DNA from: an uncultured Gammaproteobacteria bacterium
Lineage (GTDB): Bacteria > Patescibacteriota > Patescibacteriia > UBA1558 > UBA10009
DNA: 64,000 nucleotides
Direction: 5' to 3'
NCBI GenBank assembly: GCA_964588165.1
Contig: CAZPMS010000004.1
Coordinates: 32,019 to 96,018 of the forward strand
The notes below the pieces were generated by a model. The model ran no database searches and was not told where the DNA came from. It was given only the letters and a program-made list of their open reading frames with translations. The position numbers were made by a program, and so were the translations under genes. This document shows, piece by piece, positions 20,572-43,628 of this stretch (positions are counted from its first letter, which is position 1; each line of letters starts with the position of its first letter).

Positions 20572-20581
20572 GTTTATTTAA

Positions 20582-22130: not shown

Positions 22131-22144
22131 AAAATTTAATTAAA

Positions 22145-24788: not shown

Positions 24789-24901
24789 GATAACTACTAA
24801 TTACTAATATTTGCTAATATACAAATATTTTTTATGTGTAGAATTGATTTCTCATTCGTATATTAGTAACGATTCGTAATTGGTAGATCAGTATTTCGTA
24901 A
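24789..24901. promoter_or_regulatory. Intergenic inverted-repeat motif pair (ACTAATATACAAAT ... ATTCGTATATTAGTAACGATTCGTAAT), shared with the paralog-array intergenic regions
   Basis: The same words recur at 31637-31716, 34844-34956 and 40565-40803. Confidence 0.4.
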
Positions 24902-25363: not shown

Positions 25364-25364
25364 T

Positions 25365-26600: not shown

Positions 26601-26690
26601 CGTTGCCGGAATAATGGGATTCTTCCTGCCTGCTGGCAGGCGGGCGGTTTTGCCTCAGAATGACGTAAAAGGCAAGACTTTGCTACAGTG
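26543..26690. repeat. Palindromic intergenic element, copy C, with embedded sub-palindrome CCTGCCTGCTGGCAGGCGGG
   Basis: Arms tgtcatcctgaacttcagtgaaggatcccatt ... aatgggattcttc[ctgcctgctggcaggcggg]cggttttgcctcagaatgacg. Confidence 0.55.
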
Positions 26691-27651
26691 TAGTTATCGG
26701 CCTGGACTGTAAAATATAAAATTTATTTTTAACAATGGCCCATTCTATATCTTGAGGGCACTTATAATGTTTTTCAATTTTCTTAATAATATCGGCCAGT
26801 TCAATAATCTGTTTACCGGTGAGTTTCTGTTTTGACTGCTGGGCTTTTATAACCGGTTTTAAAACGCTGCTGCCGCCTGGCTTCATTATTATCTGTTTTT
26901 CCTGGGTAGCAATATTAATATCTAAAATTGTGCCCTCTTTTTTATGGACTACATAACTATCCGGTGTAATTATGCCAGATACAATGGCTTCACCTAAACC
27001 ATAGCCCGCTTCTATAATTAATTGGTTTGTGTCTTGGGTAACCGGATGAACGCTAAAGGCCACGCCTGATACTTCGGAATCTACCATTTGCTGGATAACC
27101 ACGGCCACGCTGACTTTAGTTTTAACCAGTTTTTTTTCAAACCTGTAAAAAATTGCCCTAGGAGTGAACAATGATGCCCAGCACTTTTTAACATTTTCTA
27201 CTACATTCTTTTCATTGATGTAAAGAAAAGTATCCAGCTCACCTGCCCAAGAAGCAATTTTTGAATCTTCTGCAGTAGCTGATGACCTAACTGCCACCCA
27301 CTTGCACTTCAGCTTTTTAAACTCTTTAAGAATTGCCTCTTCTATTGGCTTCGGTACCTTTGAATCCAAAATCATATCGCCAATTGTTTTGGAAGCTTTA
27401 TCAATTGAGTTTACATCCTGGTAATTTACTTTATTAAGTTCTGCCTCTATATGAACATTTAGATCCTGGCCAGGCCCTGTTGGCGGCGGCGTATCATTTA
27501 AAAAGCTTTCAAAAGCGCCTGCTAAAACCACATAACCAGGCGGTACTGCAAGTTTGGCGTTAGTCATTTCGCCTAAGGAAGCACCCTTGCCACCAGCTAA
27601 ATTAACACTTTTTTTTGTAAGTTTACTAAAAGGTAAAACAAACTCTTTCAT
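26683..27651 (-). CDS. Standalone PPDK_N / PEP-synthase-type ATP-grasp (nucleotide-binding) domain protein. It has no His swivel domain and no PEP-utilizers_C domain.
   Basis: GGKGASLGEM, VAVRSSATAEDS, SWAGELDTFL, QQMVDSEVSGVAFSVHP, EAGYGLGEAIVSGIITPDSY and CPQDIEWAI. All are hallmark PpsA/RPH N-domain motifs. Confidence 0.85.
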   Translation of the reverse strand: MKEFVLPFSKLTKKSVNLAGGKGASLGEMTNAKLAVPPGYVVLAGAFESFLNDTPPPTGPGQDLNVHIEAELNKVNYQDVNSIDKASKTIGDMILDSKVPKPIEEAILKEFKKLKCKWVAVRSSATAEDSKIASWAGELDTFLYINEKNVVENVKKCWASLFTPRAIFYRFEKKLVKTKVSVAVVIQQMVDSEVSGVAFSVHPVTQDTNQLIIEAGYGLGEAIVSGIITPDSYVVHKKEGTILDINIATQEKQIIMKPGGSSVLKPVIKAQQSKQKLTGKQIIELADIIKKIEKHYKCPQDIEWAIVKNKFYILQSRPITTL

Positions 27652-27710
27652 TTGCTTTAAGTTAATGAATTATGCTTTATTATACCATAAATTAACTGTT
27701 TCAAACAACG

Positions 27711-27852
27711 AAAAAGCTTTACTACTACTTGTCATCTCGACCGAACCCGCCGATTCGGCGGGGAAGCGGAGAGATCCCGCTAATTTAGCACGTACTATTG
27801 ATTATGGGATCCTTCGGCAGGCTCAGGATGACAGTTGAATAAAGCTTTTTCC
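27711..27852. repeat. Palindromic intergenic element, copy B. The left arm is near-identical to copy A; the central loop is inverted relative to A.
   Basis: Outer inverted repeat AAAAAGCTTTA/TAAAGCTTTTT. Arms tgtcatctcgaccgaacccgccgattcggcggggaagcggagagatcccg ... gggatccttcggcaggctcaggatgacag. Confidence 0.6.
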
Positions 27853-27915
27853 CTAGCATTAGCCAAAAAATGATTGAGCCTTGGCCTGAAGTGGCGCGAA
27901 GCGTCTACTTCAGGC

Positions 27916-27944
27916 TTGACTTTTTTACCAAAGTATGCTATGAT
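27916..27944 (+). promoter_or_regulatory. Sigma70-like promoter (TTGACT, 17-bp spacer, TATGAT) for a GC-rich cassette, preceded by GC-rich hairpin GCCTGAAGT...ACTTCAGGC
   Basis: ttgact at 27916-27921 and tatgat at 27939-27944. GGAG RBS 7 nt before ATG 28019. Confidence 0.55.
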
Positions 27945-28018
27945 TATATATTAAATTGAACCTTGATTTTGTTAAAAACATAAGCAAAAAGCTGTAAAAA
28001 CCTGAACTGGAGAACAAG

Positions 28019-28735
28019 ATGAAGAGAGTCAACGTTATTGACTGCAGGCATTACCAGTATATGAATCCCAATGGTCTCGCTCCAGATACCGCCAGGACCA
28101 TCAAGAAACTCTACCAATTGCCCACTGAACAGGGCGCGTGGGAAGCAGTAACCATGGCAAATCTGCTGACTGAGGTGGGTACCATCCCCGCTATCATCGG
28201 ACATTCGCCGCAGCGTCGTGGCAAGGGCATGGCCGAACTGGTCAAACTCCAGGCCGGCTGGGCAACGAAAATGGTGGAATGCGACCGTGGTTTGAACGAC
28301 CTGGGCAGTGATCTAAACGCCCAGGAACTGATTCCGAAAATCGTCGCCTTCTCCCAGGAGAACAGCTGTTCGGTGGAAGAAGCTGTACTGCTCCTTCCAG
28401 AGGCACGCGAATACATCTTCGAGCGGAATCATGATCGTGTCAGGGACATTCAATACCTCTGCGGCCTGGTCAATGCCGGCGATACCGTATTCATGTCCAG
28501 CCACGGCGGTTCCATAGAGCCCACGGTTCTAAGGCTCCTGCTTCTGCAGCAGGAAACTCCGCTGATTGATCAAACAGCAAACATGCTCAATGTCGAAAAC
28601 CTGAGTAACTTCGGCGGCATGCTGGGGACCGGTGAAGCCTTCACCTACACCCTGATCTTGGATGACGATGGCAACATTGTTGCCGCCGAAAACATCCATT
28701 CCATCCGCCTGCCGGATTATCCACTCGCGAAGTAG
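28019..28735 (+). CDS. Foreign (~55% GC) gene. Possible histidine-phosphatase-superfamily (SixA/PGM-like) protein.
   Basis: Strong compositional contrast with flanks. Motifs CRHYQYMNPNG (RH...N) and SSHGGSIEPTVLRLL resemble the RHG and SHGG motifs of PF00300. Own promoter and terminator. The functional call is tentative. Confidence 0.55.
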   Translation: MKRVNVIDCRHYQYMNPNGLAPDTARTIKKLYQLPTEQGAWEAVTMANLLTEVGTIPAIIGHSPQRRGKGMAELVKLQAGWATKMVECDRGLNDLGSDLNAQELIPKIVAFSQENSCSVEEAVLLLPEAREYIFERNHDRVRDIQYLCGLVNAGDTVFMSSHGGSIEPTVLRLLLLQQETPLIDQTANMLNVENLSNFGGMLGTGEAFTYTLILDDDGNIVAAENIHSIRLPDYPLAK

Positions 28736-28773
28736 TACTCTCAATCGACCTTGGTCGAAAAAGAGTCAACAAT

Positions 28774-28813
28774 AAAACCGCATCTCAGCCATGAGAAGCG
28801 GTTTTTTCTTTTT
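28774..28813 (+). terminator. Rho-independent terminator (AAACCGCATCTCA-GCCA-TGAGAAGCGGTTT plus T-tract)
   Basis: Read directly after the stop of the GC-rich gene. Confidence 0.55.
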
Positions 28814-28820
28814 GCTAAAA

Positions 28821-30008
28821 TTATAAATATTTATTTAAATCTTTTTTAAATTGATTAAAGTTCTTAACAAAAATAGTTTTTATACCCATTTTTTTAGCAT
28901 CCACTAAATTATTTCTCTGATCATCTGCATAAACTATTTCCTGCGGTTTAACCTTTAATCTTTTCACGACTTCATTTAGAGTTGCCTTACTGGCTTTTGG
29001 CAGGCCAAGTTCATAAGTATTAATAATATTTTTAAAATGTTTTTTAAAGCCAAATTTTTTAACTGCAAAACTAAATTGACTTCTGGTATTTTTAGAAAGT
29101 AATAATGTTTTATAGCCTTTTTTATTTAGTTCTTTATTTAATTCTATTGTTTTTTTATTAAGTTTAAAAAAACTGTAATGTAAATCTCTTAGCTGTTGCC
29201 AAGTTATCGGTAAATTACAATCATCAACTGTTTTTTGCCAAGCTTCTGTTTGGGTAATTTTCCTTTCTGCTGCTTGGTTAAAATATTTAAAATACATTAT
29301 ATCCTGGTATTTTTTATAACTTCCGCCGTACTTTTTAACCAAAGCCTTAGAAGTATCCGGATAGCCGGAACTTAAAATCAAACCATAGCAATCAAATATA
29401 ACCAGCTTAATCTTTGGTTTTAAATAATTTGATAACTCTTTTTTAAACTGATTATAATTTTTATATTGAATTCCTTTTATATTATACTTAGCTGCAACTT
29501 TTAAATATTTTTCTATGTCATCAATAAATATTACTTCTTCACCTTTTACTTTATATTTATCCAAAACATACTTAAACATTTTTGGATTTGTTTTTATTAT
29601 TTTTATTTTTTGAGAGTTTATGACTTCATCAAAAATTTTATCATACTTAAATTTTTTATTTAAATAATCAATATAATTCTGAAAATTGTTACTTAATAAA
29701 ATTATTTTATAGTTCTTGCTTAATTTCTTGGCCAAATTTAATACTTGCTCATTGGCCTTATGAAGATTTAGATGCATTTCTTCAATCTTTCTACCGGTAA
29801 CTTTTAATCCTAATGATCTTATAGAATCGTTCCAAGCATTTAAAGAATTCGCATTTTTGCCGCAAGTCTCTAAAAAATGTCTATCATGACAAATTTTATA
29901 AACATGCTTAAAGGAAAGATTGTATTTCTTTGCTATTGCCTTGCAGGTTTTAGGATAACCGCCATCTAAAGCAACTCCAGCTGAATCAAAAATTATTAGT
30001 TTAATCAT
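28821..30008 (-). CDS. Tandem double HAD-like hydrolase/phosphatase protein (two repeats, motif-I variants FDSAGV and FDCYGL, motif IV DD)
   Basis: Internal duplication: MIKLIIFDSAGVALDGGYP and IKLVIFDCYGLILSSGYP. DD motifs at IFIDDIEKY and VYADDQRNN. Last gene of the paralog operon. Confidence 0.7.
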   Translation of the reverse strand: MIKLIIFDSAGVALDGGYPKTCKAIAKKYNLSFKHVYKICHDRHFLETCGKNANSLNAWNDSIRSLGLKVTGRKIEEMHLNLHKANEQVLNLAKKLSKNYKIILLSNNFQNYIDYLNKKFKYDKIFDEVINSQKIKIIKTNPKMFKYVLDKYKVKGEEVIFIDDIEKYLKVAAKYNIKGIQYKNYNQFKKELSNYLKPKIKLVIFDCYGLILSSGYPDTSKALVKKYGGSYKKYQDIMYFKYFNQAAERKITQTEAWQKTVDDCNLPITWQQLRDLHYSFFKLNKKTIELNKELNKKGYKTLLLSKNTRSQFSFAVKKFGFKKHFKNIINTYELGLPKASKATLNEVVKRLKVKPQEIVYADDQRNNLVDAKKMGIKTIFVKNFNQFKKDLNKYL

Positions 30009-30094
30009 ATAATATTGGTCTTATTCATCCCCTCCTTGCCAAGGAGGGGAAAACAACTATCTAAAATTTTGCCGATAACTGACTTGAGAGATGG

Positions 30095-31636
30095 TCAAAT
30101 CTTACGCACTTCTCCATTACTGGCATCAACCTGTACCCTGTCGCCATCTTTTAAAATTTCAGTGGCCACCTTAGTACCTATAATACAAGGAATTTTTAAT
30201 TCCCGGCTGACAATAGCCGCATGGCAAGTTATTCCGCCTAAATCAGTAACAATGGCTCCGGCCTTTTTCATGGCCGGCACTAAATCCGGGTTGGTCATAG
30301 TAGAAACTAAAATATCACCCTTATTCATTTTTTTAAGATCCCGAGTTGTGTTTATAATTCTGACTGTGCCTTCGGCTTTACCTAAACTAGCAGTTTGACC
30401 ATGAAAATAATTCATTTCAGTTAAATCTTCTTTTCGCAGTAAATAATGCTTCATGGAATCAAATATCTTATTAGTAAATACTTTACCCGGTAATTTACCC
30501 TCTACTACTACAAATAAACAACCCTTCATCCTTTTGTGTAAATCAGCCGGCCTATCCAGTTTTCCATCCAGCATTAATTTAACTTCTGGCAATAAACAGT
30601 TTCTTAATTCGTTAACAGACATGCTTAAACGGATAGATATTTCTTTTAGAAGCGGTTCTAGTTCATAGTATGACTGAACCAAACTCATTTTCCGATAATC
30701 TTTAGAATAAATAAACCCTTGAGTTACCTCTAATAACTTTTCATGTTTTTTATCAATTTTTAAATTATTAAGTAATTGATCGTGAATCTTTTTGGACTCT
30801 CTTTTTTCTTGCTGAATTTTTTTTATTTTATCCAAAGGTTTATTATTATCAGATACATCTTTTTTCAACTTCCGCCAAAAATAACTATCTGGAAAAGCCG
30901 GGCCTTCAAAATTATAGCCCATGTATTTATATTTTTTGATATGAGTTTCGACCAGCTTGATAATCTCTTTAGATAAATCTTTTTTCGGCCAAGGGCCGAC
31001 CAGCCTCTGGCTGGTACTCTTAATTTTTGAAGTAATTTTTAATAAGGCAATTTCTTCTTCCTGAACTTTAGAAAGCTTTTCTGGGATAGTTAAAAGAGCA
31101 AAACATTCTTTAGCAGTTTTATTATATTTAGTCTTTCTAACTTGCTTATTTAAATAATTAACTAGATAAGAAGTTAAATGAGGTTTGTATAAATCCATAT
31201 AAACCGGTGAAAGAGATGGATTATAAACTTTACTTTGCCAAACCAAATATTTTTTATAAAGTTGATGCAGTTCTTTATTGGATTTCTTTTTTAAATTTAC
31301 TTTAAAAATATTTTTTGAACTAAACTCAATTAAACCGTCAGAATTTTTTAAAATAATTTTGTTTAAACTAATGCCCCATTGTGGATTTTTTACAACTTTA
31401 TTCAAACCAAATTGACCAAGCTTGGTCCATTCATCATGGTCTACAAAAATTAAACCACTATCTTTCCTGTGCAAACAAATAACATTTTTTTGATACTTGC
31501 CTAAATAATCTCCGGTTCCTTTAATGGCCCCGCACCAGCCAGGATACATTATTGGATATAAAGAAATCGGCTGATTAGGCTCTAGGACCCCCCATTTATA
31601 TTTTTTTAAATTTTGGATTGAGTAAATGTCTTTCAT
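30095..31636 (-). CDS. RPH/YvkC-like phosphotransferase module: variable N-domain plus C-terminal PEP-utilizer phosphohistidine swivel domain (paralog 8 of 8)
   Basis: C-terminus GDILVSTMTNPDLVPAMKKAGAIVTDLGGITCHAAIVSRELKIPCIIGTKVATEILKDGDRVQVDA. No ATP-grasp and no PEP-utilizers_C TIM barrel. Confidence 0.75.
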   Translation of the reverse strand: MKDIYSIQNLKKYKWGVLEPNQPISLYPIMYPGWCGAIKGTGDYLGKYQKNVICLHRKDSGLIFVDHDEWTKLGQFGLNKVVKNPQWGISLNKIILKNSDGLIEFSSKNIFKVNLKKKSNKELHQLYKKYLVWQSKVYNPSLSPVYMDLYKPHLTSYLVNYLNKQVRKTKYNKTAKECFALLTIPEKLSKVQEEEIALLKITSKIKSTSQRLVGPWPKKDLSKEIIKLVETHIKKYKYMGYNFEGPAFPDSYFWRKLKKDVSDNNKPLDKIKKIQQEKRESKKIHDQLLNNLKIDKKHEKLLEVTQGFIYSKDYRKMSLVQSYYELEPLLKEISIRLSMSVNELRNCLLPEVKLMLDGKLDRPADLHKRMKGCLFVVVEGKLPGKVFTNKIFDSMKHYLLRKEDLTEMNYFHGQTASLGKAEGTVRIINTTRDLKKMNKGDILVSTMTNPDLVPAMKKAGAIVTDLGGITCHAAIVSRELKIPCIIGTKVATEILKDGDRVQVDASNGEVRKI

Positions 31637-31716
31637 ATTATACTAATTACTAATCTGTACTAATATACGAATTTGAAAAATTATTAGTATATTAGTAACA
31701 ATTCGTAAATTTGTAA
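31637..31716. promoter_or_regulatory. Inverted pair of the shared motif (tactaatatacgaat / attcgtaaat...tatattagtaac) directly upstream of a paralog sub-operon
   Basis: ctgtactaatatacgaatttg (reverse copy) and ttagtatattagtaacaattcgtaaat (forward copy) within 80 bp. Confidence 0.4.
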
Positions 31717-33234
31717 TTATATTTTTTTAACAATACCTTTTGTGGCGTCAATCTGAACTTTTTGGCCGTCTTTTAAAATTTTAGTGGCAAATCTAGTGCC
31801 AATCACACAAGGAATACTTAGCTCTCGGCTTACAATAGCAGCATGGCAGGTTACTCCGCCTTCATCAGTAACCACTGCGGCTGACTTTTTCATTAACGGT
31901 ACCATATTAGGATTAGTGGCATATGATACTAAAATATCACCAGCTTTAAATTTTGCGTAATCTTCTTTACTATTAATAACTTTAACAATGCCTTTAGCTT
32001 GGCCCTTACAAGCGCACTGCCCTTGAAGCTTTTTTAAACCCTTGGGTACCTTGTGGGCTTTAATATTTTTATTGAATTCTTTAGCTGCTTTACCTGTTAC
32101 TAATCTAATATTACCTTTGACGTTTATATAAAAACAGCGTTTTATTCTTTCGTTAACTTCATTTATATCAACTTCTTTCCTGCCGATTAATATTTCTACG
32201 ATTTCGTCTTTATGTAAATAATGCCCTTGTTTGACTGTTAAACCAAATCTTCTGCCAAATTCTTTAAGTAAAAACTCATAAGCATAATAACTATAATATT
32301 CAATGTCTTTCCTGTAGGCTTTTTGGAATCCAAACTGTCTAACCACCCAAAACATCCATTTGTGTTTTTCATCAACCTTAAGTTGTTTTAACAAATTGTT
32401 CTGTTTTTTCTCTAAAGTTTCTGCTTTCTTTTTTATTTTTACTAATTCTTGATGAGGATCATTTTTAACCCAATCTTTAATAGATGAAACAAAATATTCC
32501 AAATCTAAGAGTGGTCCTTCAAAACCAAAATTAATCCAATTGTATTTTTTTTCGTGAAGTTTGATCTTCTGTAAAAAATATTTATCTTTTTGATCAAGCT
32601 GTTTTATAATTTCTCGAGCTGACTTTTTGAAGATAGTTGAAAGTTTTTGCGACTTCTTAACTTCTATTGCCAACTTTAAAATATTTTCTCTCTCTTTAGC
32701 AGTTATAGTTTTTCTTTTATCCGAAGATAAAATCTGAAAAATTTCTACTAAAGTATATTTTTTGGGAATTGTCAAAGTATTTAAATATTCAGTTAATGAG
32801 TTGGTCCATAAAGGAGTACCGTATTCAGTATAACTAAAAGGAACGCTCCAAGTACTCATCTCATAAAAATAATAATAGAACTTTTCAAACTTCTTAGCTA
32901 ATTGCTTATCGGTTAAAATCGATAAGTCTTCTTTGACGATTTTTTTATTATACTCATGGAATTCATGGATAACATCGCTAACGTTCTTTAATACTTTCTT
33001 TGTTATTTTTTGATCATTGCAAAACATTTTGAAAAAATAAGCAGCTATAGAATTATAAGATTCCAAAACATAGCCTTGCCGGAGGCGCCCATTTGCAAGG
33101 CCAACTGACTGATGATTGGAACCCTTACCAAATTCCCTCACAAAACCGTCATAATTAGCATCAAAATGAAACCCAAACGGAAACAAATTTGCTCCATAAT
33201 TTTCGTTAATTAAAAACCAATTCACTTTTTTCAT
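31717..33234 (-). CDS. RPH/YvkC-like phosphotransferase module (paralog 7): variable N-domain plus His swivel domain
   Basis: C-terminus GDILVSYATNPNMVPLMKKSAAVVTDEGGVTCHAAIVSRELSIPCVIGTRFATKILKDGQKVQIDA. Confidence 0.75.
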   Translation of the reverse strand: MKKVNWFLINENYGANLFPFGFHFDANYDGFVREFGKGSNHQSVGLANGRLRQGYVLESYNSIAAYFFKMFCNDQKITKKVLKNVSDVIHEFHEYNKKIVKEDLSILTDKQLAKKFEKFYYYFYEMSTWSVPFSYTEYGTPLWTNSLTEYLNTLTIPKKYTLVEIFQILSSDKRKTITAKERENILKLAIEVKKSQKLSTIFKKSAREIIKQLDQKDKYFLQKIKLHEKKYNWINFGFEGPLLDLEYFVSSIKDWVKNDPHQELVKIKKKAETLEKKQNNLLKQLKVDEKHKWMFWVVRQFGFQKAYRKDIEYYSYYAYEFLLKEFGRRFGLTVKQGHYLHKDEIVEILIGRKEVDINEVNERIKRCFYINVKGNIRLVTGKAAKEFNKNIKAHKVPKGLKKLQGQCACKGQAKGIVKVINSKEDYAKFKAGDILVSYATNPNMVPLMKKSAAVVTDEGGVTCHAAIVSRELSIPCVIGTRFATKILKDGQKVQIDATKGIVKKI

Positions 33235-33235
33235 A

Positions 33236-34843
33236 TTAGACTTTTTTTACTATCCCCTTAGTGGCGTCCACTTCAACAAGGTCGCCATCTTTTAAAACTT
33301 GGGTGGCAACTTTAGTGCCAATTAAACAGGGTATGCTAAGTTCTCTGGCAACAATAGCTGCATGCGAAGTAACACCGCCTTGTTCAGTAACAATAGCCGC
33401 TGCCTTTTTCATGGCAGTCACAATATCCGGATCAGTGGCAATGGAAACCAAAATATCGCCCTTTTTCATCTTAGACATATCCTTTGGCCTAATAATAATT
33501 TTTACTTTGCCCTTAGCCTTGCCCACACAACCGGTTTGGCCCTGGATTTCCGTTATATCCGAAAGGTCTTTCTGTTTTATTTGCGAAGCCAGCTTTTTAG
33601 CCTGCTTTCCCACAAAGACTTTTTCAAAATCTTTCTCTACATAAAAAACGCAAAACTTGGTTCGCTCTTTAAGATTTTGGCGATTGATTTTATTACTAAG
33701 CAAAGCCTGCTTAATTTCACCAATAATCATGAACCTAATTTGCTTTAAAGTGATGTTTAACCTCTTGGCAATTTCTTTAAGAATCGGCTGCATCCTATAG
33801 ATGGCATAAATTTGGGCATACCTACGATAAATTTTAGTTACCATAAAATCGCCCCAATTATTGAATAAAGTAAGCCAAGCTCCTTTAATGCTAAGTTTTT
33901 TTATAAGTTTTTGACGGTCTGCTAAAATCTTCTTCTGCTCGGCCTGCATATTAGCAAGCATTTTTTCAGCATTTTGCTCCCGACCAACAAACTTAACCAG
34001 CTCCTTTAAATAATAATCAAAACTATTAACGCCTTCTTTGCCGGTCCACAAAAATTTTACGTAAAAATATTTTTCATAATACTTTTGAATAGCCTTTAAT
34101 ATTGAAAGGTGGACTTTACCCCTAATCCCGTTAACTTTACTTTCTAAAAGGTTCTCGTACTCGGGCGTATGGGTGGCTAAACCGTATTTAGCTGCGTTCT
34201 GCTCTTCAAACAGATTGTATAAATTTTTGAATAATTTTTTATGATATTTGTCTTCTTGAATCCTGGCAGCAATTTTTAAAAACTCTTCTTGTTCAATTTG
34301 AATTAAAGATTTTTTCCGAGGATGGGTTAATAAAACCAAATACTCATTTACTTTATCTTCAGTTACATCTATGCCTCGTAAAAATTGTTTAGCCCGCAGA
34401 GTTAAATTATTATGGAACATATCAACAGCTACCGGCAGCCAGCCCCATTGGTAATATTTTGTATGGATCTCATCATGTTTTTTATAATGTTCCCAAAGTT
34501 CTTTTTTAGAAAGTTTATGCAAATTATCTTCCGGCAGTTTTTCGGCAAACGATCTTAACCTATCTGAATATTCTACAATTCTTTTATTGGTTAGGGTAGC
34601 AAACTCCGGCTGGTTAACGTATTTTTTTACCAAATGGCCGCCAACTTCCTTGGAATCTTTCTCGCCATAATAAAACCAAAGGTGATACCCTTTAAATAAA
34701 GTAAGTATTTTTTTATAAGCCTTGCCGCTTGGACTTTTAAACTCGTTAACAAAGCAAGAAAGCCAAATCTGAGCAAAAAATAAATCCATATCAGGAATAT
34801 CTTCTCCTAAATACCAAGGGTCTTTATTATTTAGATGTTTCAT
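33236..34843 (-). CDS. RPH/YvkC-like phosphotransferase module (paralog 6)
   Basis: C-terminus GDILVSIATDPDIVTAMKKAAAIVTEQGGVTSHAAIVARELSIPCLIGTKVATQVLKDGDLVEVDA. Confidence 0.75.
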   Translation of the reverse strand: MKHLNNKDPWYLGEDIPDMDLFFAQIWLSCFVNEFKSPSGKAYKKILTLFKGYHLWFYYGEKDSKEVGGHLVKKYVNQPEFATLTNKRIVEYSDRLRSFAEKLPEDNLHKLSKKELWEHYKKHDEIHTKYYQWGWLPVAVDMFHNNLTLRAKQFLRGIDVTEDKVNEYLVLLTHPRKKSLIQIEQEEFLKIAARIQEDKYHKKLFKNLYNLFEEQNAAKYGLATHTPEYENLLESKVNGIRGKVHLSILKAIQKYYEKYFYVKFLWTGKEGVNSFDYYLKELVKFVGREQNAEKMLANMQAEQKKILADRQKLIKKLSIKGAWLTLFNNWGDFMVTKIYRRYAQIYAIYRMQPILKEIAKRLNITLKQIRFMIIGEIKQALLSNKINRQNLKERTKFCVFYVEKDFEKVFVGKQAKKLASQIKQKDLSDITEIQGQTGCVGKAKGKVKIIIRPKDMSKMKKGDILVSIATDPDIVTAMKKAAAIVTEQGGVTSHAAIVARELSIPCLIGTKVATQVLKDGDLVEVDATKGIVKKV

Positions 34844-34956
34844 ATAACTACTAATTTACAAATAAATACTAATATACAAATATGTGATTCAATTATTAAG
34901 TATATTGGATTTGTATATTAGTACAGATTGGTAATTCGTAATAATTTAATTCGTAG
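34844..34956. promoter_or_regulatory. Shared intergenic inverted-repeat motif (tactaatatacaaat ... tttgtatattagtacagattggtaattcgtaat)
   Basis: Sequence words shared with 24789-24901, 31637-31716 and 40565-40803. Confidence 0.4.
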
Positions 34957-36015
34957 TCATATTTTCTTTATTATACCATTGGCAGCATCAACTTCTACCG
35001 TATCACCGTCTTTTAAAATTTTAGTTGCAATTTTTGTGCCTATAATACAAGGTTTTTTTAATTCCCGAGCCACAATAGCTGCATGCGATAAAATACCGCC
35101 GGAATCAGTAACAAATGCTGAAGCTTTCTTCATTAAAGAAAGAAACTCCGGACGAGTCATGCCGGAAACCAACACATCGCCAGTATTAAATTTTTTAACT
35201 TTGTTTGGATCATGCACTACACGAACCACACCTTTAACCTTTCCAGAGTAAGCTGTCATACCGCGTAGTGTATTGGTAATATTTACCTCAGCCAAAACCT
35301 TTACTAAAGATTCGGCTTTATGTTCATTATATATGCTAAATCGGTTTTTATCACAATATATACCAAAAAGTTTATCACGTTTTTTTAAAAGATCTCTGGA
35401 AGGTAATTTCCCGGTTCGAAAATAATTTATCATTTCATCTTTAATACAACAAAGCACCAACTGGGTAGATATTTTTTCATTTTTTCCAATTTTTTTAGCC
35501 ATTTTTTCCATAAACTGCTCGGTCAAAGTCAATACATCCTCAGCGTACAGCCTTGCTTCCTCAAACTTGCGAAACGATTTCTTAAGTTGATCAGAGGTAA
35601 GCCCATCTACTATATACTTAACATTAATATGTGGTTGATAATATTTAACAAGTTTATTCCAAAAAATATTATACAGTTTTTCGGTAAGCGTGACGTTTTT
35701 ATGCTTTACCATAAACTCACGCAATTCATCAGCTTGACGTTTTAGACTTAAACAAATGATTTTTACTTGCCGATGGTTGCCTTTAATTTCTTCTGCCAAA
35801 TGCTTACATATTGCCTCACGGTCTTTTTGCCTAGCCCAACCCTCGCTCTTGCCATTTCGTATAATAATGATGCTCTCGGGCAAAAATGGCCTACCATTAA
35901 ATTTAATTAACCGTGAATATTGCTCAGCAAAATGGCTGCAAGAAAGTATGCTCCAACTACCGGCCCAAATTTGAAGCCAATCAGGTCTTTGTAATAATTG
36001 AGGAGAGATATACAT
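34957..36015 (-). CDS. RPH/YvkC-like phosphotransferase module (paralog 5), shortened. Its N-domain is ~180 aa shorter, consistent with an internal deletion.
   Basis: 352 aa versus 480-535 aa for the sibling paralogs. Retains the QIW N-terminal motif and an intact swivel domain GDVLVSGMTRPEFLSLMKKASAFVTDSGGILSHAAIVARELKKPCIIGTKIATKILKDGDTVEVDA. Confidence 0.7.
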   Translation of the reverse strand: MYISPQLLQRPDWLQIWAGSWSILSCSHFAEQYSRLIKFNGRPFLPESIIIIRNGKSEGWARQKDREAICKHLAEEIKGNHRQVKIICLSLKRQADELREFMVKHKNVTLTEKLYNIFWNKLVKYYQPHINVKYIVDGLTSDQLKKSFRKFEEARLYAEDVLTLTEQFMEKMAKKIGKNEKISTQLVLCCIKDEMINYFRTGKLPSRDLLKKRDKLFGIYCDKNRFSIYNEHKAESLVKVLAEVNITNTLRGMTAYSGKVKGVVRVVHDPNKVKKFNTGDVLVSGMTRPEFLSLMKKASAFVTDSGGILSHAAIVARELKKPCIIGTKIATKILKDGDTVEVDAANGIIKKI

Positions 36016-36020
36016 AAAGA

Positions 36021-37568
36021 TTATATTTTTTTAATTATTCCCTGAGTGGAGTTAACTTCTACCGTATCACCGTCTTTTAATACTTTATCACAATCTGCTA
36101 CCCCAACCACGCAGGGCACCTGCATTTCTCTGGCCACAATAGCCGTGTGGCAGGTTAAACCGCCGGCACCGCCAATTAAAGCTTTGGCCTTTTTCATGGC
36201 TGGAACTAAATTAGGATTAGTGTTATGGGCCACCATAATATCACCCTTATTCATTTTATCCATATCTTTTGGCACATTGACGATTTTGACAATGCCCTTT
36301 ACTTTTCCGGGGTAAGCGCAGGTACCTTTTAGTTCACTGGTATTATTGGTTATTTTTTTAATTAATATTTTTTTATAAAATTCATTTGCTGCCGAACCTG
36401 AATAGGTTTTATTATAAACTTTGCCGTTTTTACGATACCAATAATCGGCCACAAACCTTTGCCTTTTGTTTAATTCATCCTGATTAATCCGACCGGTTTT
36501 TAGAGCTTGGGTAATTTCCCAAGGTTTTAGCGCCCATACTTGATTTAGGGATAAATGCATTCTTTTAGCAACTTCTTTAAAAACTATTTCGTAATAATAC
36601 ATACTGTTATAAAGAGCATTCTTGCGGTAATCTTTAATAAATACCATTTCCTGGGCCATTTTAATTAAATCTTTTTCATATTGTGTAAAATTCAATTCTT
36701 TTAGCATTTTATTTTGCCGGCTGATCAGTTGTTGCCGCCTTTTAGCAATTTCATTTAAAAGTTTGGTGGGGCTCTGGCCTTCCCTAAAAAATGCCTGCCA
36801 TCTGCCAATGTATTCTACAAGTTCATAAGCTGGCCCGCGGTACTGGAAGGTAAACGAAGTATAAGCATGGTAATGGTTGATAATCTTTTTTGAAATCACC
36901 TGATCTAAATTCTTAATATTATCTGTTAGGTCATCTAAATCAGAATGGATGAAAGTTTCTTTAAGTTTTCTTTTGTTATTTATTAACTTAGCTATCTGTA
37001 AAAAGCTCTCTTCCTCTTTTTCTAAAAAACTTTTTTTATGAGGAGAAGTTAAAACCGGAAAAACTTCAGAAATATTTTTTTTAATCATTGATTTCTTTAA
37101 TTTAGGCTCAATAATTTTAATTATGCCTTTAGTAACCAGTTCCCTTCCTTGGTCGGCATGCCAGGAAAGCGAAGCTCCAATCCCGTGGCTAAATTGGTGA
37201 TGTTTATATATTTTATTAAGAAGTTTTACAATCTGGCCATTGTTTAACTTATTTAAAGCAAGTTTTTTTATAGCTTTAGATTCTTTTAAAAATCGAGTGG
37301 AGACATCCTCTACTTCTTTTAAAATCTTTAGGGCCCAAGCTGGATCTTTAAACATTTTGGCTGACAAAAATTCAGCCTGCTTATCAAACTCTTTAGCAAT
37401 ATAAATCATGTTGCTAAAATCACCCTTATAGTAGGTAATATATTTGTTAAATTCTTTACCCAGACCTTTTTCGGGCCAGTCTTCAAAAAAACTTTTCATG
37501 GGAAAGCCCATCATAAATAAAGTATTTTCTGGAATGTCTTCAACTATTTTCCAAATTTCTTTACTCAT
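36021..37568 (-). CDS. RPH/YvkC-like phosphotransferase module (paralog 4)
   Basis: C-terminus GDIMVAHNTNPNLVPAMKKAKALIGGAGGLTCHTAIVAREMQVPCVVGVADCDKVLKDGDTVEVNS. Confidence 0.75.
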   Translation of the reverse strand: MSKEIWKIVEDIPENTLFMMGFPMKSFFEDWPEKGLGKEFNKYITYYKGDFSNMIYIAKEFDKQAEFLSAKMFKDPAWALKILKEVEDVSTRFLKESKAIKKLALNKLNNGQIVKLLNKIYKHHQFSHGIGASLSWHADQGRELVTKGIIKIIEPKLKKSMIKKNISEVFPVLTSPHKKSFLEKEEESFLQIAKLINNKRKLKETFIHSDLDDLTDNIKNLDQVISKKIINHYHAYTSFTFQYRGPAYELVEYIGRWQAFFREGQSPTKLLNEIAKRRQQLISRQNKMLKELNFTQYEKDLIKMAQEMVFIKDYRKNALYNSMYYYEIVFKEVAKRMHLSLNQVWALKPWEITQALKTGRINQDELNKRQRFVADYWYRKNGKVYNKTYSGSAANEFYKKILIKKITNNTSELKGTCAYPGKVKGIVKIVNVPKDMDKMNKGDIMVAHNTNPNLVPAMKKAKALIGGAGGLTCHTAIVAREMQVPCVVGVADCDKVLKDGDTVEVNSTQGIIKKI

Positions 37569-37616
37569 ATTTTTTTATTATATTTTTTTTGTCCTGCTGT
37601 TCGGGACTTCGCGAGG

Positions 37617-39065
37617 TTAAGTAATTTTTTTTATGGTACCTTGCTCAGCATCAACTTCAACTTTATCATTATCTTTTAAAACTAAATGGACATTAGGAAC
37701 ACCAACAATACAGGGTACTCTTAATTCTCTAGAAACAATAGCTGCGTGGGAAGTAATACCGCCCAGCTCGGTAATGATAGCGCTGGCCATTCTCATAATC
37801 GGCACATAATCTATACAGGTTGATTCAGAAACTAAAATATCACCTTTCTTAAACTTTTTTAAATCACTGATACTTTTAATTATTTTTACTTTTCCATTAA
37901 CTTTGCCAATCGAAGCACAGATTCCTCTTAAACGATTGCCTTTAGATTTTGCCGGTCGTTCGTAATTATTTTTAAATAAATTTTGTACTTCTTTACCTGA
38001 ATATACTTCCTTATTCTTTATATCACTAAAAAATAATGATGCTTTTTGACGATCTTTTATCTCCGAAGTAAATACAACATCATTTACAATAACGTCTGAA
38101 ACTTCTTCTTGGGTTAAATATCTCATATTATATAAAGAAAGCCCTGTTCTCTTAGTTATTTCTTTAACTACATTCTTTAATAAATAAGTACCTAAACTAA
38201 CCATGGTCTCTGATTCATTACGAATAAAGGCAATCTCCTGCATTAACTGGGGCCAATCGCTTTTTTGAGGAAATTTATTTAAAACTTTTTTAATGCCTTC
38301 CTTTTGCTTAGTTGGATATTCTAAAATTTCTTTTTTAAGATTTTCTAAATTCTTATTTTTTGCTAATTTTTTAAATTCGGAGATTGCATATTTTTTATCC
38401 CAGCTTGGACCAAACAAAAATACCGGTAGCCAACCAAAATTATAAAGATATTTATTTATCTCTTTTTCTACGTCCGAAGTTATTTTTTTTGCTTTCTTAT
38501 ACTTTATGGCCAGATCAATTAAAGCTATTTCATCTAATTGAGTAGAGGTTAAGCTGACAGGGGTTGTTAAAATAGTTCTATATTCATTAAACTTAGCAGT
38601 CTCTTTTATTTTGCTAAGTTGATTTTTTATGTATTTTTCTAATTCCTTAAGATAAAACCGTTCGCCAACCATGCAATGCTGATCAAAAGGCGTTGCTTGA
38701 TGTATTAAATCAATAATTTCTCTGAATTCTTTATTTAACAACTTATCATTTAAATTATTAAATGATTTATTCTGCTTTAAAAGAAGCTTTTGTTTAACCT
38801 TTTTAAAAACTGGATAAAATTTGTTTAGATTATTCAATAATTTCTGTTTAGAAAAAGAATTAATGTTTTTTTCAACCTGTCGTAAATATTTTTTACTAAT
38901 ATATAAATACTCTTTATCTTGAATCACAAAAACAGCTACTTCTTTATCTTCACTAAAGTGCCTTTTCAAATTCTTGTTTACCGCCGGATCATACCACAAT
39001 AAATTATCAAGTAATAAAATATTATTCCATTCGCCAAAATATTTGTAATCTAAAATTTTTTTCAT
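37617..39065 (-). CDS. RPH/YvkC-like phosphotransferase module (paralog 3)
   Basis: C-terminus GDILVSESTCIDYVPIMRMASAIITELGGITSHAAIVSRELRVPCIVGVPNVHLVLKDNDKVEVDA. Confidence 0.75.
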   Translation of the reverse strand: MKKILDYKYFGEWNNILLLDNLLWYDPAVNKNLKRHFSEDKEVAVFVIQDKEYLYISKKYLRQVEKNINSFSKQKLLNNLNKFYPVFKKVKQKLLLKQNKSFNNLNDKLLNKEFREIIDLIHQATPFDQHCMVGERFYLKELEKYIKNQLSKIKETAKFNEYRTILTTPVSLTSTQLDEIALIDLAIKYKKAKKITSDVEKEINKYLYNFGWLPVFLFGPSWDKKYAISEFKKLAKNKNLENLKKEILEYPTKQKEGIKKVLNKFPQKSDWPQLMQEIAFIRNESETMVSLGTYLLKNVVKEITKRTGLSLYNMRYLTQEEVSDVIVNDVVFTSEIKDRQKASLFFSDIKNKEVYSGKEVQNLFKNNYERPAKSKGNRLRGICASIGKVNGKVKIIKSISDLKKFKKGDILVSESTCIDYVPIMRMASAIITELGGITSHAAIVSRELRVPCIVGVPNVHLVLKDNDKVEVDAEQGTIKKIT

Positions 39066-40564
39066 ATTTTTTTTACTAGACCTTTAGTAGCGTCAACTTC
39101 AATTTGATCACCGTCTTTTAAGATTTTTGTACCTATTTTAGTACCCACTACACAAGGAATATTAAATTCCCGGCTAATAATGGCGGCATGGCAGGTTAGA
39201 CCGCCTTCATCGGCCACTATGGCTACTGCCTTCCTTATGGCCGGAACAATTGATGGGGTGGTAGCCGTGGAAACTAAAATGTCGCCCTCCTGCATTTTAG
39301 GCATATCATCCGGCATATCTACCCGCCTAACTATTCCTTTTGCTTTGCCGGGATATGCTGATTGGCCCTCTATTTCTTTTAAATCCTTTATCTCAATTTT
39401 TTCTTCTTCTAAATTTTCTTGTTGCCATTTGGCTGCTTCTTTGCCCTGATAGAGCTTTGCGCCGTCCCCTTCCGGCACAACAATGTGGAATTTCTGGCGT
39501 TCATTTATTAAATCTATATTTACTTCTTTACCATTTAAAGCAGCATCTATTTCTTCTACAGTGGCTGACCTAACTTGGCCAACAGACCAACCTAAACGTT
39601 TGCCAATTTCTTTTTGTAAAAATTCTATATGATAATATGATTTTGATTGGTAATCTTTCCTTCTAGGCTTTAAATAAACAACTTTAGAGGCAATTTCCAC
39701 ATAACTTTTTTCTTTCTCCGATAAATTCATTTTTGAAAAATATCCATCTCTCTCTTTAAGCAAATTATTTCTTTCTTTATTAAGTTGTGATAATTTTTCT
39801 TCAGCTTTAATGCCCTTTTGATAATAAAATTTTAAGGTTTCTATAAAATCAAAGTCAGTAGCTGCTGGTCCGCTATATACATAAAAAACCCAAGCATATT
39901 TTTTTGTATGTTGTTCTACTTTTTTGTAAACCCCGGGTTCTTTCTGCTTCAATAGTAATAAAACCTGGCTCGTTTCTTTTTTTAAGATTGTTTTATTTTT
40001 TAATTTTTGATAAATCTTTAAGATTGATTTTTCCTGCTCAATGGCAAAAGAATCTTCTATAGGCTGAGTGAATATTGAAAAAGCTTTGCTTACTTCATCT
40101 TTATTTAATTTAGATTGTAAAATTGAAGTTAATTTATCTTCAACATAATGATATTCTTGGAAGTCTAAATAAGGGATCATTACGCCATAAGCATATTCCA
40201 GACCATTTAATTCACCATGTTTTTGATAAGCTTTAACTATTTTTTTATTGGAATACTTAGATAAATCATCAGTTACAAATTTTTCTGTAAAACTATTCAT
40301 CTCTTTACCATGCTTAACCGAATCATCTAAAATTTTATTCAAAACATTAATATCTTCATCAACCATTTTTGATAATTTCTCATACCCATCTTTCCAAGTA
40401 TCAGCAATAACCAAATAATCTATTTTTTTAGTATTACTTCTAATACCTACTAATACTTGTGGGATGCCAAATATTTTTGGCTGACTTGTTAAACCAAGTG
40501 TCCAAATATAGTTTCGCCAGAATGGTGAATTATAATCACTGGCAATTTTTGACCATTTTCTCAT
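39062..40564 (-). CDS. RPH/YvkC-like phosphotransferase module (paralog 2). Overlaps paralog 3 by 4 bp.
   Basis: C-terminus GDILVSTATTPSIVPAIRKAVAIVADEGGLTCHAAIISREFNIPCVVGTKIGTKILKDGDQIEVDA. Confidence 0.75.
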   Translation of the reverse strand: MRKWSKIASDYNSPFWRNYIWTLGLTSQPKIFGIPQVLVGIRSNTKKIDYLVIADTWKDGYEKLSKMVDEDINVLNKILDDSVKHGKEMNSFTEKFVTDDLSKYSNKKIVKAYQKHGELNGLEYAYGVMIPYLDFQEYHYVEDKLTSILQSKLNKDEVSKAFSIFTQPIEDSFAIEQEKSILKIYQKLKNKTILKKETSQVLLLLKQKEPGVYKKVEQHTKKYAWVFYVYSGPAATDFDFIETLKFYYQKGIKAEEKLSQLNKERNNLLKERDGYFSKMNLSEKEKSYVEIASKVVYLKPRRKDYQSKSYYHIEFLQKEIGKRLGWSVGQVRSATVEEIDAALNGKEVNIDLINERQKFHIVVPEGDGAKLYQGKEAAKWQQENLEEEKIEIKDLKEIEGQSAYPGKAKGIVRRVDMPDDMPKMQEGDILVSTATTPSIVPAIRKAVAIVADEGGLTCHAAIISREFNIPCVVGTKIGTKILKDGDQIEVDATKGLVKKI

Positions 40565-40803
40565 ACACTACTAATTTACAAATTTTTTACTAATATACTA
40601 ATCTACGAATGTACAAATAATTACCAATATACGAATTTGATGCTTTTAAATATAAATGATAATTTTCGTATATTCGTTATAAACTTCATACAGAATACCA
40701 ATAATCTTATAACTTAATTTAGGATAAATTAAATCGCTTTTCATAATTTTTTAATTAATTATTATATTTTATTTGTATATTCGTACAAATTAGTAATTCG
40801 TAG
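40565..40803. promoter_or_regulatory. Long intergenic region with reverse and forward copies of the shared motif (ttactaatatactaatctacgaatgtac ... ttatttgtatattcgtacaaattagtaattcgtag), separated by ~130 bp of AT-rich spacer
   Basis: Sequence words shared with the other three motif regions. Confidence 0.4.
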
Positions 40804-42279
40804 TTATATTTTTTTAACTATCCCTTTAATGGCGTCTATCTCTACCCTGTCACCATCTTTTAAAATCCTGGTTATGCCATTTATCCCAACTACGCAGGGC
40901 ACGCCAAGCTCCCGGCTAACAATGGCAGCGTGTGATAATAAGCCGCCCATTTCGGTAACAATGCCTGCGGCTTTTTCCATAGCCGGCACAAATGATGGCA
41001 CAGTGGCTTCGGCTACCATAATATTTCCTTTTTTAACTCGTGAAATATCGGCCACCGATTTAAAAATTACTACCCTGCCTTTGGATTTTCCCAAACTGGC
41101 ACACTGACCAATCAGTATTTCTTTAGGCTCTACTTTTTCTTGGCCGATTTCTTTATTAAATAAATCCTTAGCACCTTTGCCAGTAACGATTTTTATTCCC
41201 CCTTTCTTAATAATTGAAGTGCTGTCTTTATCTCTTTCTATTAACTCTTTTTTAAATTGTTTTGTAGCCTTCTTTTTTAATTTTAAAAGTTCCATTATTT
41301 CATCTATGGTAGCTTCGATTAATTCATTATATAAAAGGCCTGTTTTTTTAGCCATATATTTTAGTAAAGGCAGGCTTTTATAAGCATAATAATTATGGAC
41401 TTCATCAAACATATTAGTGCTATAGGCCATCTCTTTCATTAATTTAACCAGTTTTTTTTCGTAGGCAGTGAATTTATATTTTTTTATTATTTTTTGTGAA
41501 AATAAATCAGCCCGCTTTAAATGTTGAATCTTTTTTAATTCTTCTTGCCAATTATCTTTTAACCGCTGCCTAAGCCTTTTAAATACATCGGCTTCTTGCC
41601 AAGGCTGGCCTCTAAAATAGTACATACCCATAAAGGCATATTTTTGAAGGTGTTTTTTAATTTCTTTTTTTACTGCATCTGATTCTATTTTTAATTTATT
41701 AACCTTGATTTTTTTAACAAGCTTTAACAAGTCTAATTTTTCTTGCTGGATTACTGAAAGTTTTTTAGCTTGGCTTAATATTTCAAAATCAGCAAAAGGA
41801 TTTTTTGATTTATTTTTTTCTAGGGCTGTTAAAATTTTATCAGCGATTGGTTGGTTTAAAAAATAATAGTTATAACTGTACTGGATGGCTAAAATAATAT
41901 CTGCCGACCATTTTTTTAAAAAATTTTCCAAATTAAATTCGTTAAAGCCTTTTTTTGGAATTTTATCTACAAAAACCTTCATCCTTTCCAAAACCTGCTG
42001 ATGAAACCTGTATTCCTTTAATAAAACCTCGGGCTTATTTTTTAAAAGACGTTGCAGTTTACTAATATGCTTATCCAGTTCAGCTTTTAAAAAATAGCGG
42101 TTGCCTCCCCCCTGAAACCAGGAGCTGCCAGCCAGTTGTGACGGAGTTAATTTAGTAATTTTTTTTGGAGCCAAGCCTTTGCCTAAAATACTAACAAAAA
42201 AAAGTTCAAAATTTTTGCCTTTTTTTGAAATTAATTTCCATTTATTTTTTTGCGCCATTTTACTTTTTATTAAAAACAA
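40804..42279 (-). CDS. RPH/YvkC-like phosphotransferase module (paralog 1, first of the array). Its start overlaps the upstream THUMP methyltransferase gene by 20 bp.
   Basis: C-terminus GNIMVAEATVPSFVPAMEKAAGIVTEMGGLLSHAAIVSRELGVPCVVGINGITRILKDGDRVEIDA. Confidence 0.75.
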   Translation of the reverse strand: MFLIKSKMAQKNKWKLISKKGKNFELFFVSILGKGLAPKKITKLTPSQLAGSSWFQGGGNRYFLKAELDKHISKLQRLLKNKPEVLLKEYRFHQQVLERMKVFVDKIPKKGFNEFNLENFLKKWSADIILAIQYSYNYYFLNQPIADKILTALEKNKSKNPFADFEILSQAKKLSVIQQEKLDLLKLVKKIKVNKLKIESDAVKKEIKKHLQKYAFMGMYYFRGQPWQEADVFKRLRQRLKDNWQEELKKIQHLKRADLFSQKIIKKYKFTAYEKKLVKLMKEMAYSTNMFDEVHNYYAYKSLPLLKYMAKKTGLLYNELIEATIDEIMELLKLKKKATKQFKKELIERDKDSTSIIKKGGIKIVTGKGAKDLFNKEIGQEKVEPKEILIGQCASLGKSKGRVVIFKSVADISRVKKGNIMVAEATVPSFVPAMEKAAGIVTEMGGLLSHAAIVSRELGVPCVVGINGITRILKDGDRVEIDAIKGIVKKI

Positions 42280-43456: not shown

Positions 43457-43628
43457 ATTTAATATAATTTTACCGATTTTTGGCTAAAAAGACAATATTT
43501 TTGATTCACTTGACAATTTATACAATATCTGACAAAATGGTGAAGCATTTTATTCTAATTAACCATATCGAGTTAAGCTCGATCCCTATTTACTAATCAT
43601 TAAAAAATGGGGTAATTATGAATCAATT

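Follow-up and report, generated by a model that had tools for sequence, protein, structure and literature searches.

How might eight neighbouring proteins, each ending in the same kind of phosphohistidine domain but differing in the rest of their sequence, be supplied with phosphate, and what would they do with it? The question is raised by positions 26683 to 42279 of a 64,000-nucleotide (nt) stretch of chromosomal DNA of Patescibacteria type (the window; coordinates given without a locus number are positions within it), where a single stand-alone ATP-grasp protein accompanies eight tandem genes for proteins with a C-terminal swivel domain (the carriers P1 to P8). An earlier note, made from the letters alone, had read this locus as a split relative of rifampin phosphotransferase (RPH) in which one ATP-grasp protein serves many carriers. 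The work described here argues that the system is probably a two-component, ATP-dependent small-molecule dikinase of the RPH/PpsAB/HpeHI type, organised one-to-many, whose swivels are charged in trans. The locus, with protein lengths in amino acids (aa), comprises:

26683 to 27651, minus strand: stand-alone ATP-grasp subunit, 322 aa; PF01326 only
28019 to 28735, plus strand: 238-aa gene, distantly histidine-phosphatase-like and conserved in synteny; 27% identical to a gene of a related locus (L002)
28821 to 30008, minus strand: tandem double hydrolase of the HAD family, 395 aa; PF00702 and PF13419, each matching twice
30095 to 31636, minus strand: carrier P1, 513 aa; PF00391 at 438-508, His472 at codon 30221-30223
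31717 to 33234, minus strand: carrier P2, 505 aa; PF00391 at the C-terminus, His464
33236 to 34843, minus strand: carrier P3, 535 aa; PF00391 at 460-530, His494 at codon 33362-33364
34957 to 36015, minus strand: carrier P4, 352 aa, a conserved short form; PF00391 at the C-terminus
36021 to 37568, minus strand: carrier P5, 515 aa; PF00391 at 440-510, His474 at codon 36147-36149
37617 to 39065, minus strand: carrier P6, 482 aa; PF00391 at 405-476, His440 at codon 37746-37748
39062 to 40564, minus strand: carrier P7, 500 aa; PF00391 at 425-495, His459 at codon 39188-39190
40804 to 42279, minus strand: carrier P8, 491 aa from a TTG start or 484 aa from an ATG; PF00391 at 416-486, His450 at codon 40930-40932

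The ATP-grasp protein and its carriers

The gene at 26683-27651 had been described as a complete ATP-grasp domain and nothing else, and both parts of this description hold. Its sole Pfam domain is PF01326 (PPDK_N; E 2e-96), and residues 1-322 align end to end with residues 1-316 of the Listeria enzyme (RPH-Lm, 5fbs), whose ATP-grasp domain consists of residues 1-314 (PMC4844700); the protein also aligns with 5HV6, a crystallised construct that contains the ATP-grasp domain only. In RPH, the first phosphotransfer is lost on mutation of K22, R117, or T136 (PMC4844700); the window protein keeps each of these residues, as K22, R122, and T141. A truncated remnant of a longer gene is ruled out, because the protein is coextensive with the RPH domain and because its best 120 database relatives are all stand-alone, PF01326-only proteins of 285-369 aa with 60-84% identity. 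(Across the loci of the census described below, ATP-grasp identity is 34-65%, mostly 51-65%.) HpeI, the ATP-grasp subunit of the two-component dikinase HpeHI, has been crystallised (PMC12167813), and PDB entry 9GOJ (387 aa), which matches the window protein at E 1e-49, is probably its structure.

In all eight carriers, PF00391 (E 4e-23 to 7e-26) is the only significant Pfam domain and covers the last ~72 residues. Each contains the motif GG[IVL][TL][CS]H[AT]AI, which supplies the catalytic His context, with the His lying 41-42 residues from the C-terminus. The PEP/pyruvate TIM barrel (PEP-utilizers_C, PF02896) is absent by Pfam from all nine proteins. On each of these points the earlier note was correct. 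Its further claim that the domains preceding the swivel (the N-domains) are mutually divergent is borne out by their identities, but not in the sense that they are unrelated: the N-domains, which range from 244 to 427 aa, have pairwise identities of 16-26%, compared with 46-65% for the swivels, yet they all align as one homologous family.

What this family resembles is indicated both by profiles and by structure prediction, and the answer agrees with the proposal that the carriers are RPH-like rather than pieces of PEP synthase. The profile of the carrier paralogs aligns over 258 positions with RPH 605-866, which comprise the C-terminal third of the rifampin (RIF)-binding domain and the swivel. 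AlphaFold2 yields confident models for P2 (pLDDT 93.4, pTM 0.90) and for P4 (pLDDT 90.2), and when a carrier model is used in a Foldseek search, six RPH entries lead the list (E 2.6e-13 to 1.9e-11, TM up to 0.58), with 429 residues of P2 covered by the RPH structure. Matches to the swivel only reach TM values of just ~0.2, and no solved structure other than RPH covers the N-domain in this search. In the short form P4, the sheet at the N-terminus and the C-terminal portion of the N-domain are present, but ~150 residues of helices are missing.

The phosphate site of the RPH substrate domain also looks partly retained. At the position of RPH Y665-R666-E667-Y-P-K670, the profile alignment places KDYRK in P1, KAYRK in P2, KIYRR in P3, RLYAE in P4, KDYRK in P5, RNESE in P6, KPRRK in P7, and TNMFD in P8. 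Thus, K or R is found at 666 in seven of the eight carriers, Asp at 667 in two, and K or R at 670 in five; P8 has no equivalent of R666, E667, or K670. Because of this distribution, the second active site looks to be kept in most carriers, but not in all.

One could suppose instead that these genes are non-functional PEP synthase (ppsA) genes, broken up or in decay. The closest known structure for both the ATP-grasp protein (E 1e-64) and the swivel (E 1e-47) is indeed a true PEP synthase, 8a8e, which in each case is nearer than RPH, and the public label of the ATP-grasp protein is 'pyruvate,water dikinase'. However, there is neither a TIM barrel nor a remnant of one, the nine open reading frames (ORFs) are intact and have conserved orthologues, the N-domains fold confidently in AlphaFold2 as an RPH-type domain, and the substrate domain precedes the swivel, unlike the order in PEP synthase. 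The missing barrel, intact ORFs, conserved orthologues, and RPH-like fold rule this explanation out for all practical purposes.

Arrays and fusions in other genomes

Insight into how one ATP-grasp protein might serve many carriers comes from relatives of the locus; the earlier note had proposed a search of other candidate phyla radiation (CPR) genomes, and arrays were found to recur in many Patescibacteria and in DPANN-labelled archaea. A word-indexed search with the N-domain profile retrieved solely Patescibacteria proteins, of ~500 or ~350 aa. An exhaustive profile search gave 5177 cluster representatives (50% identity) at E <= 1e-3 and 812 at E <= 1e-30; most are ~500 aa, and some proteins contain 2-5 copies of the N-domain. 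This family has no Pfam model and no close member that has been characterised. A scan of one genome per species gave at least 600 stretches, of which 597 were confirmed. Among the best 79 loci, grouped here and throughout by their deposited labels, ~33 are from Patescibacteria, ~36 from DPANN archaea (Micrarchaeota, Woesearchaeota, Nanoarchaeia, Pacearchaeota, and Iainarchaeum), and ~10 from others or ambiguous. TrmB and HTH_10 regulators occur in the archaeon-labelled loci, which fits an archaeal origin of these loci. The carriers belong to a large subfamily that is concentrated, among the sampled loci, in ultra-small bacteria and archaea.

A census of 84 loci (designated by L numbers) revealed at least three carrier units in 38 loci and at least six in 17; the largest array, at a Nealsonbacteria locus, has 12 units, and the largest among archaeon-labelled loci has 10. 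A stand-alone ATP-grasp gene (~312-330 aa) lies beside the array in 23 of the 84, usually at its 3' end, and in none of the 84 is there more than one. L002 is syntenic with the window, having the array, a HAD gene, a carrier, an opposite-strand histidine-phosphatase-like gene, and PPDK_N. Elsewhere, the parts have been joined. In particular, L074 (Woesearchaeota, JAFGGS010000004.1, 6209-17494, plus strand) is a 3761-aa ORF in which one ATP-grasp domain precedes eight carrier units (three of the short and five of the long form), each with a terminal CHAAIV swivel. L047 fuses an ATP-grasp with two units (1311 aa), single proteins of L088 and L057 follow the domain order of RPH (803 and 781 aa, respectively), and in L056 a HAD domain, an N-domain, and a swivel form one protein of 750 aa.

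Taken together, the natural fusions, the finding that no locus has a second stand-alone ATP-grasp, and the way in which swivels are conserved but N-domains diverse fit the idea, put forward in the earlier note, of one charging subunit for the eight carriers. The fusions of ATP-grasp with carrier also point to ATP as the phosphate donor. Since the swivels resemble one another and the N-domains are very different, it is most likely, judging from the sequences, that each carrier has its own substrate and that one charging module is common to all. The extent of this diversity is evident when N-domains are clustered alone (full-length carriers collapse to one cluster through the shared swivel): 240 N-domains give 160 clusters at 35% identity.

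Some carriers have nevertheless been kept with little change over long distances. One carrier type, P3, is conserved widely; the orthogroup of its N-domain counts 19 members, one in each of 19 loci (11 from Patescibacteria, 6 DPANN-labelled, and 2 ambiguous), and its full-length identity is 60-64% to members in L005, L003, L001, and the archaeon-labelled L053. The N-domain identity between the window and the L053 contig is 56%, which suggests either gene exchange or a shared need, and the family in this way connects bacterial and archaeal ultra-small symbionts. Orthologues of P1, P2, P4, P5, and P7 are present at 39-62% identity in a few genomes (P1, 62% in L001 and 57% in L002; P5, 44-52%; P7, 39-46%), but P6 and P8 have no orthologue above ~30%. 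The P3 type adjoins a short (~350 aa) carrier both in the window (33236-36015) and in L003, and L020, L022, and L029 have short units at its flanks or in its vicinity. In L059 (904-3320), a minimal two-gene pair consists of an ATP-grasp and a P3-type carrier.

Proposed mechanism, candidate substrates and setting

A series of steps by which the system would work is suggested by its homology to RPH (PMC4844700) and to the two-component enzymes HpeHI and PpsAB (PMC12167813). The ATP-grasp subunit would bind ATP and dock briefly with each of the eight carriers at its conserved swivel, whereupon the swivel His would attack the β-phosphate of ATP, with release of Pi (from the γ position) and AMP. 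The charged swivel would then swing back to its own helical N-domain and phosphorylate a hydroxyl group on the small molecule bound in the N-domain pocket. Finally, the neighbouring hydrolases, which are HAD proteins lacking the general acid/base and a histidine-phosphatase-like protein, would process phosphorylated products or phospho-carriers. Domain content, fold, the conservation of ATP-site and catalytic His residues, synteny, and the natural fusions are observed, and from them we infer charging in trans, small-molecule substrates, distinct specificities, and the roles of the hydrolases.

Several observations weigh against this proposal. In P8, P6, and P4, the phosphate-binding motif of the RPH type is incomplete, so that some carriers may behave otherwise or have no activity at the second site. 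The residue at -2 from the catalytic His is Thr in six of the window carriers and Leu in two, and in the family at large it is Thr in 228 of 269 units (TCH in 156, TSH in 72); this is the PEP-synthase-type residue rather than the Met of RPH and HpeH, and may point to regulation of another kind or to another partner. In addition, the ATP-grasp gene lies outside the transcription unit of the carriers and is co-oriented with a block of genes resembling a type IV secretion system (T4SS). Lastly, kinases beside phosphatases look futile unless the two act at different steps.

Which compounds might be phosphorylated is suggested mainly by the company that the arrays keep. Recurrent neighbours include HAD and histidine-phosphatase-like proteins, phosphoribosyltransferases, EamA/flavokinase, Pta, HIT, and sugar-type TrmB regulators, each type in 4-8 of the 84 loci; this loose signal leans toward the handling of phospho-metabolites rather than drug resistance. 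(Three phosphoribosyltransferase genes surround one carrier in L003, 1-3500; an EamA/flavokinase fusion follows the HAD gene in L005, 13804-15066; and phosphate acetyltransferase, hexapeptide transferase, and TrmB-type regulators lie near arrays in the DPANN-labelled L061, L067, L075, and L078 and in the Aminicenantes-labelled L077.) A more specific version of the dikinase explanation, which we hold to be possible though tentative, is that the carriers form a salvage or trapping battery that phosphorylates host-derived hydroxylated metabolites such as sugars, nucleosides, cofactor precursors, or lipid alcohols, replacing classical kinases putatively lacking from these reduced genomes. Besides the neighbours, this version is favoured by the presence of the family in both Patescibacteria and DPANN-labelled archaea, which are reduced symbionts, by the old orthologues of several paralogs (44-64% identity), and by the sub-micromolar KM from which the authors of the HpeHI work proposed a scavenging role for that enzyme (PMC12167813). 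It is weakened by the looseness of the neighbour associations and by the substrates of the characterised relatives, which are aromatic or hydrophobic compounds (rifamycins, phenolics, and pyrrole aldehydes). A broader form of the idea, on which we would place somewhat less weight, is metabolite capture across the ultra-small symbionts of both domains (Patescibacteria and DPANN archaea): a single conserved ATP module would feed an exchangeable library of carriers, many kinds of host-derived compound would be trapped or activated by phosphorylation, again in place of classical kinases putatively lost, and the HADs that lack the general acid/base and the histidine-phosphatase-like proteins would process the products. 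If this is true, the one-to-many phosphoryl-relay design would be one not known for any dikinase.

The earlier note had offered antibiotic or toxin inactivation as an example of what the carriers might do, each of them phosphorylating a different compound of the host or of a competitor. RPH is the sole solved structure that covers the substrate domain, N-domain diversity is extreme, and rph-like genes have been counted as resistance-like in a survey of the CPR resistome (PMC8651080), all of which could be taken to favour such a role. No specific support for it was found, however. The carriers score 58-80 bits with the NCBIfam RPH equivalogs, far below the cut-offs of 999 and 1700 bits; the family is present in archaea as well; the P3 type is 60-64% identical across distant genomes, one of them archaeon-labelled; and the locus is placed among housekeeping genes. 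PADLOC, which covers anti-phage defence proteins only, gives no match for the array proteins. We therefore consider a role in inactivating antibiotics or toxins unlikely, and host-derived hydroxylated metabolites are the more likely substrates. A known anti-phage defence system was rejected on the same PADLOC result.

The HAD gene at 28821-30008 was correctly recognised as a tandem double, and it is the last gene of the array in its direction of transcription. Its two copies of motif I, FDSAG and FDCYG, keep the nucleophilic Asp, but the Asp at +2, the general acid/base, is replaced by Ala and Tyr, respectively. This residue is missing in all 10 array-associated HADs with a recovered motif I, the variants elsewhere being FDLYG, FDAYG, VDFYG, FDAHG, and IDFNG. 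HADs without the +2 Asp would be suited to good leaving groups (aryl, enol, and acyl phosphates or phosphohistidine) or to a long-lived aspartyl-phosphate. A HAD of ~200 aa is found in 14 of the 84 loci, and single-domain orthologues sit inside the arrays of six; the L056 fusion has its HAD at the N-terminal end of a carrier. HAD genes in relatives are located as follows:

L001: 18385 to 18993
L002: 17126 to 17731
L005: 13176 to 13787
L022: 13940 to 14599
L029: 13418 to 14038
L044: 12822 to 13427
L056: 4253 to 6505 (the fusion)

The 238-aa protein encoded on the opposite strand has no Pfam match of its own. Nonetheless, it looks like a divergent histidine phosphatase: its similarity to the syntenic L002 gene has an E value of 9e-18, the L002 gene has a weak His_Phos_1 match, RH and SHGG motifs are visible, and its BLAST cluster spans eight array loci and includes one member with a canonical RHGES. 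(The GC content of this gene is above that of the array.) These hydrolases probably act on phosphorylated products or on phospho-carriers.

The peculiar HADs also lend some plausibility to a relay, in which the carriers, largely independent of the ATP-grasp protein, would pass phosphate to proteins (for example, to the HADs that lack the +2 Asp) or between metabolites. Consistent with a relay are the absence of the general acid from every array-associated HAD whose motif I was recovered, the HAD-carrier fusion, and the finding that HpeH alone shuttles phosphate between phenolic compounds (PMC12167813). Yet the N-domain keeps the fold of the RPH substrate domain and mostly keeps its phosphate-site motif, and the fusions argue for ATP as the donor; we thus regard a relay as improbable, more so than a role in antibiotic inactivation, and continue to favour an ATP-dependent dikinase charged in trans.

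From the methyltransferase gene upstream of P8 through the HAD gene, intergenic gaps range from -4 to 239 base pairs, with P6 and P7 overlapping by 4 nt. A 20-base-pair overlap between P8 and the methyltransferase gene, reported earlier, arises from the TTG start at 42279 that the longest ORF takes; the ATG at 42258, which lies 1 nt past the methyltransferase stop and gives a family-typical N-terminus, is the more likely start on sequence grounds. Nor was the description of the upstream gene as a THUMP methyltransferase confirmed: Pfam finds UPF0020/N6_N4 methyltransferase domains in it and no THUMP domain. The double HAD gene and the opposite-strand 238-aa gene separate the ATP-grasp gene from the carriers. 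A promoter and terminator scan of 26000-44000 gave counts no higher than shuffled controls and is therefore uninformative about transcription units, and Rfam and tRNA scans gave no match within or adjoining the array locus. An identical ATP-grasp protein with the same neighbours is found in independent ENA and JGI assemblies, which argues that the locus is not an assembly artefact.

The remainder of the window contains ClpB, RecG, rpS6, SSB, and three tRNAs, and its GC content is 29-42%. Downstream of the ATP-grasp gene on the same strand is the conserved T4SS-like block (16688-26600, minus strand), which encodes a 411-aa protein, PrgI, a TraC-like protein, and a VirB4/TraG-type ATPase, with genes for a T4SS pilin and a DsbA-like protein farther along. 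The order ATP-grasp then T4SS is seen in four other Patescibacteria loci as well (L021, L032, L056, and L062). Two large ORFs, at 50215-58674 (minus strand, 2819 aa) and 47290-50211 (minus strand, 973 aa), matched nothing in Pfam at E <= 0.001, and an ORF at 2030-4567 (minus strand, 845 aa) has a pretoxin HINT (PT-HINT) domain, which suggests a polymorphic-toxin-type protein.

The array also matters beyond the question of its mechanism. Ultra-small organisms of the Patescibacteria/DPANN type have genomes of roughly 1 Mb, and for such organisms an array that spans ~15.6 kb in the window, and that reaches 12 tandem genes or one protein of 3761 aa in relatives, is a large investment. JGI labels stand-alone homologues of the ATP-grasp protein 'pyruvate,water dikinase', and carriers are publicly labelled 'PEP-utilizing enzyme'; current labels are misleading for metabolic reconstruction (gluconeogenesis). 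Likewise, if the arrays are among the rph-like genes counted in the CPR survey, resistome counts may be distorted (PMC8651080).

Comparison with known systems

By any curated NCBIfam cut-off, the window system is classed on its sequences as neither RPH, PigC, nor PEP synthase (the ATP-grasp protein, for instance, scores 269 bits against RPH equivalog cut-offs of 999 for RIF_Ptrans_rph and 1700 for RPH), but it shares parts with each. With RPH (5FBS, 5FBT, 5FBU, 5HV1) and PRK06241, all three domains are homologous and the fold of the substrate domain is the same. The ATP-site residues K22/R117/T136 are kept, R666..K670 appear partly kept as K-x-Y-R-K, and the swivel is C-terminal with its His within ~50 residues of the end. 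Unlike RPH, however, the window system has its domains on two polypeptides (the fused relatives L088, L057, L047, and L074 lie elsewhere), its substrate domain is only ~17% identical to that of RPH, and its swivel is much nearer to that of true PEP synthase. PigC, RedH, and HapC, which condense prodiginines, belong to the same three-domain family as the window parts, and the NCBIfam alignments of P2 and P5 extend far into the PigC central domain. In contrast to the window system, PigC-type enzymes are single polypeptides whose phosphorylation drives condensation, and no pigment-pathway genes are present in the window. PEP synthase and PPDK provide the best sequence matches for the ATP-grasp and the swivel and have the T-[CS]-H signature in common with them, but no TIM barrel occurs in the window proteins, whose swivel is found at the C-terminus and not in the middle, and an RPH-type helical domain stands in place of the barrel.

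The nearest parallels in organisation are PpsAB (phenylphosphate synthase), CreHI, and HpeHI, which are characterised two-component dikinases with the ATP-grasp separate from the carrier (PMC12167813). As in these enzymes, an ATP-grasp protein in the window stands apart from a protein with an RPH-like substrate domain and a C-terminal swivel, and the catalytic His is close to the C-terminus; in HpeH, the substitution H581Q abolishes activity (PMC12167813). The expected chemistry would be the same, with ATP + substrate + H2O giving AMP + Pi + phospho-substrate via phosphohistidine. HpeH, like P2, is covered by no solved structure except RPH (473 residues for HpeH; PMC12167813). HpeH has Met at -2 from the catalytic His and no regulatory Thr (PMC12167813), whereas the window carriers have Thr or Leu. 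The carriers are also smaller, ~500 aa compared with the 71 kDa of HpeH. PpsA, CreH, and HpeH are ~45% identical to each other, but the NCBIfam PRK08296 models, which we take to represent PpsA-like proteins, match the carriers only at the swivel and linker (the last 100-130 residues). Furthermore, no aromatic-catabolism genes, such as form the context of HpeHI-type systems, are seen among the window neighbours, and the hosts are Patescibacteria and DPANN archaea rather than free-living degraders.

The most conspicuous difference is one of number, since HpeHI, CreHI, and PpsAB are encoded as gene pairs (1:1), while in the window one ATP-grasp protein stands to eight carriers. The suggestion that neither the split nor the array had been described is thus correct only in its second half: the split was already known from these three enzymes (PMC12167813), but no description of a one-to-many array was found when the literature on CPR and DPANN organisms was searched for PEP-utilizing, dikinase, or RPH arrays. 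It is consequently the one-to-many array that appears to be new. If the proposed mechanism is true, the sharing of one ATP module among exchangeable substrate modules would represent a new organising principle for dikinases, and possibly a modular toolkit for regioselective phosphorylation.

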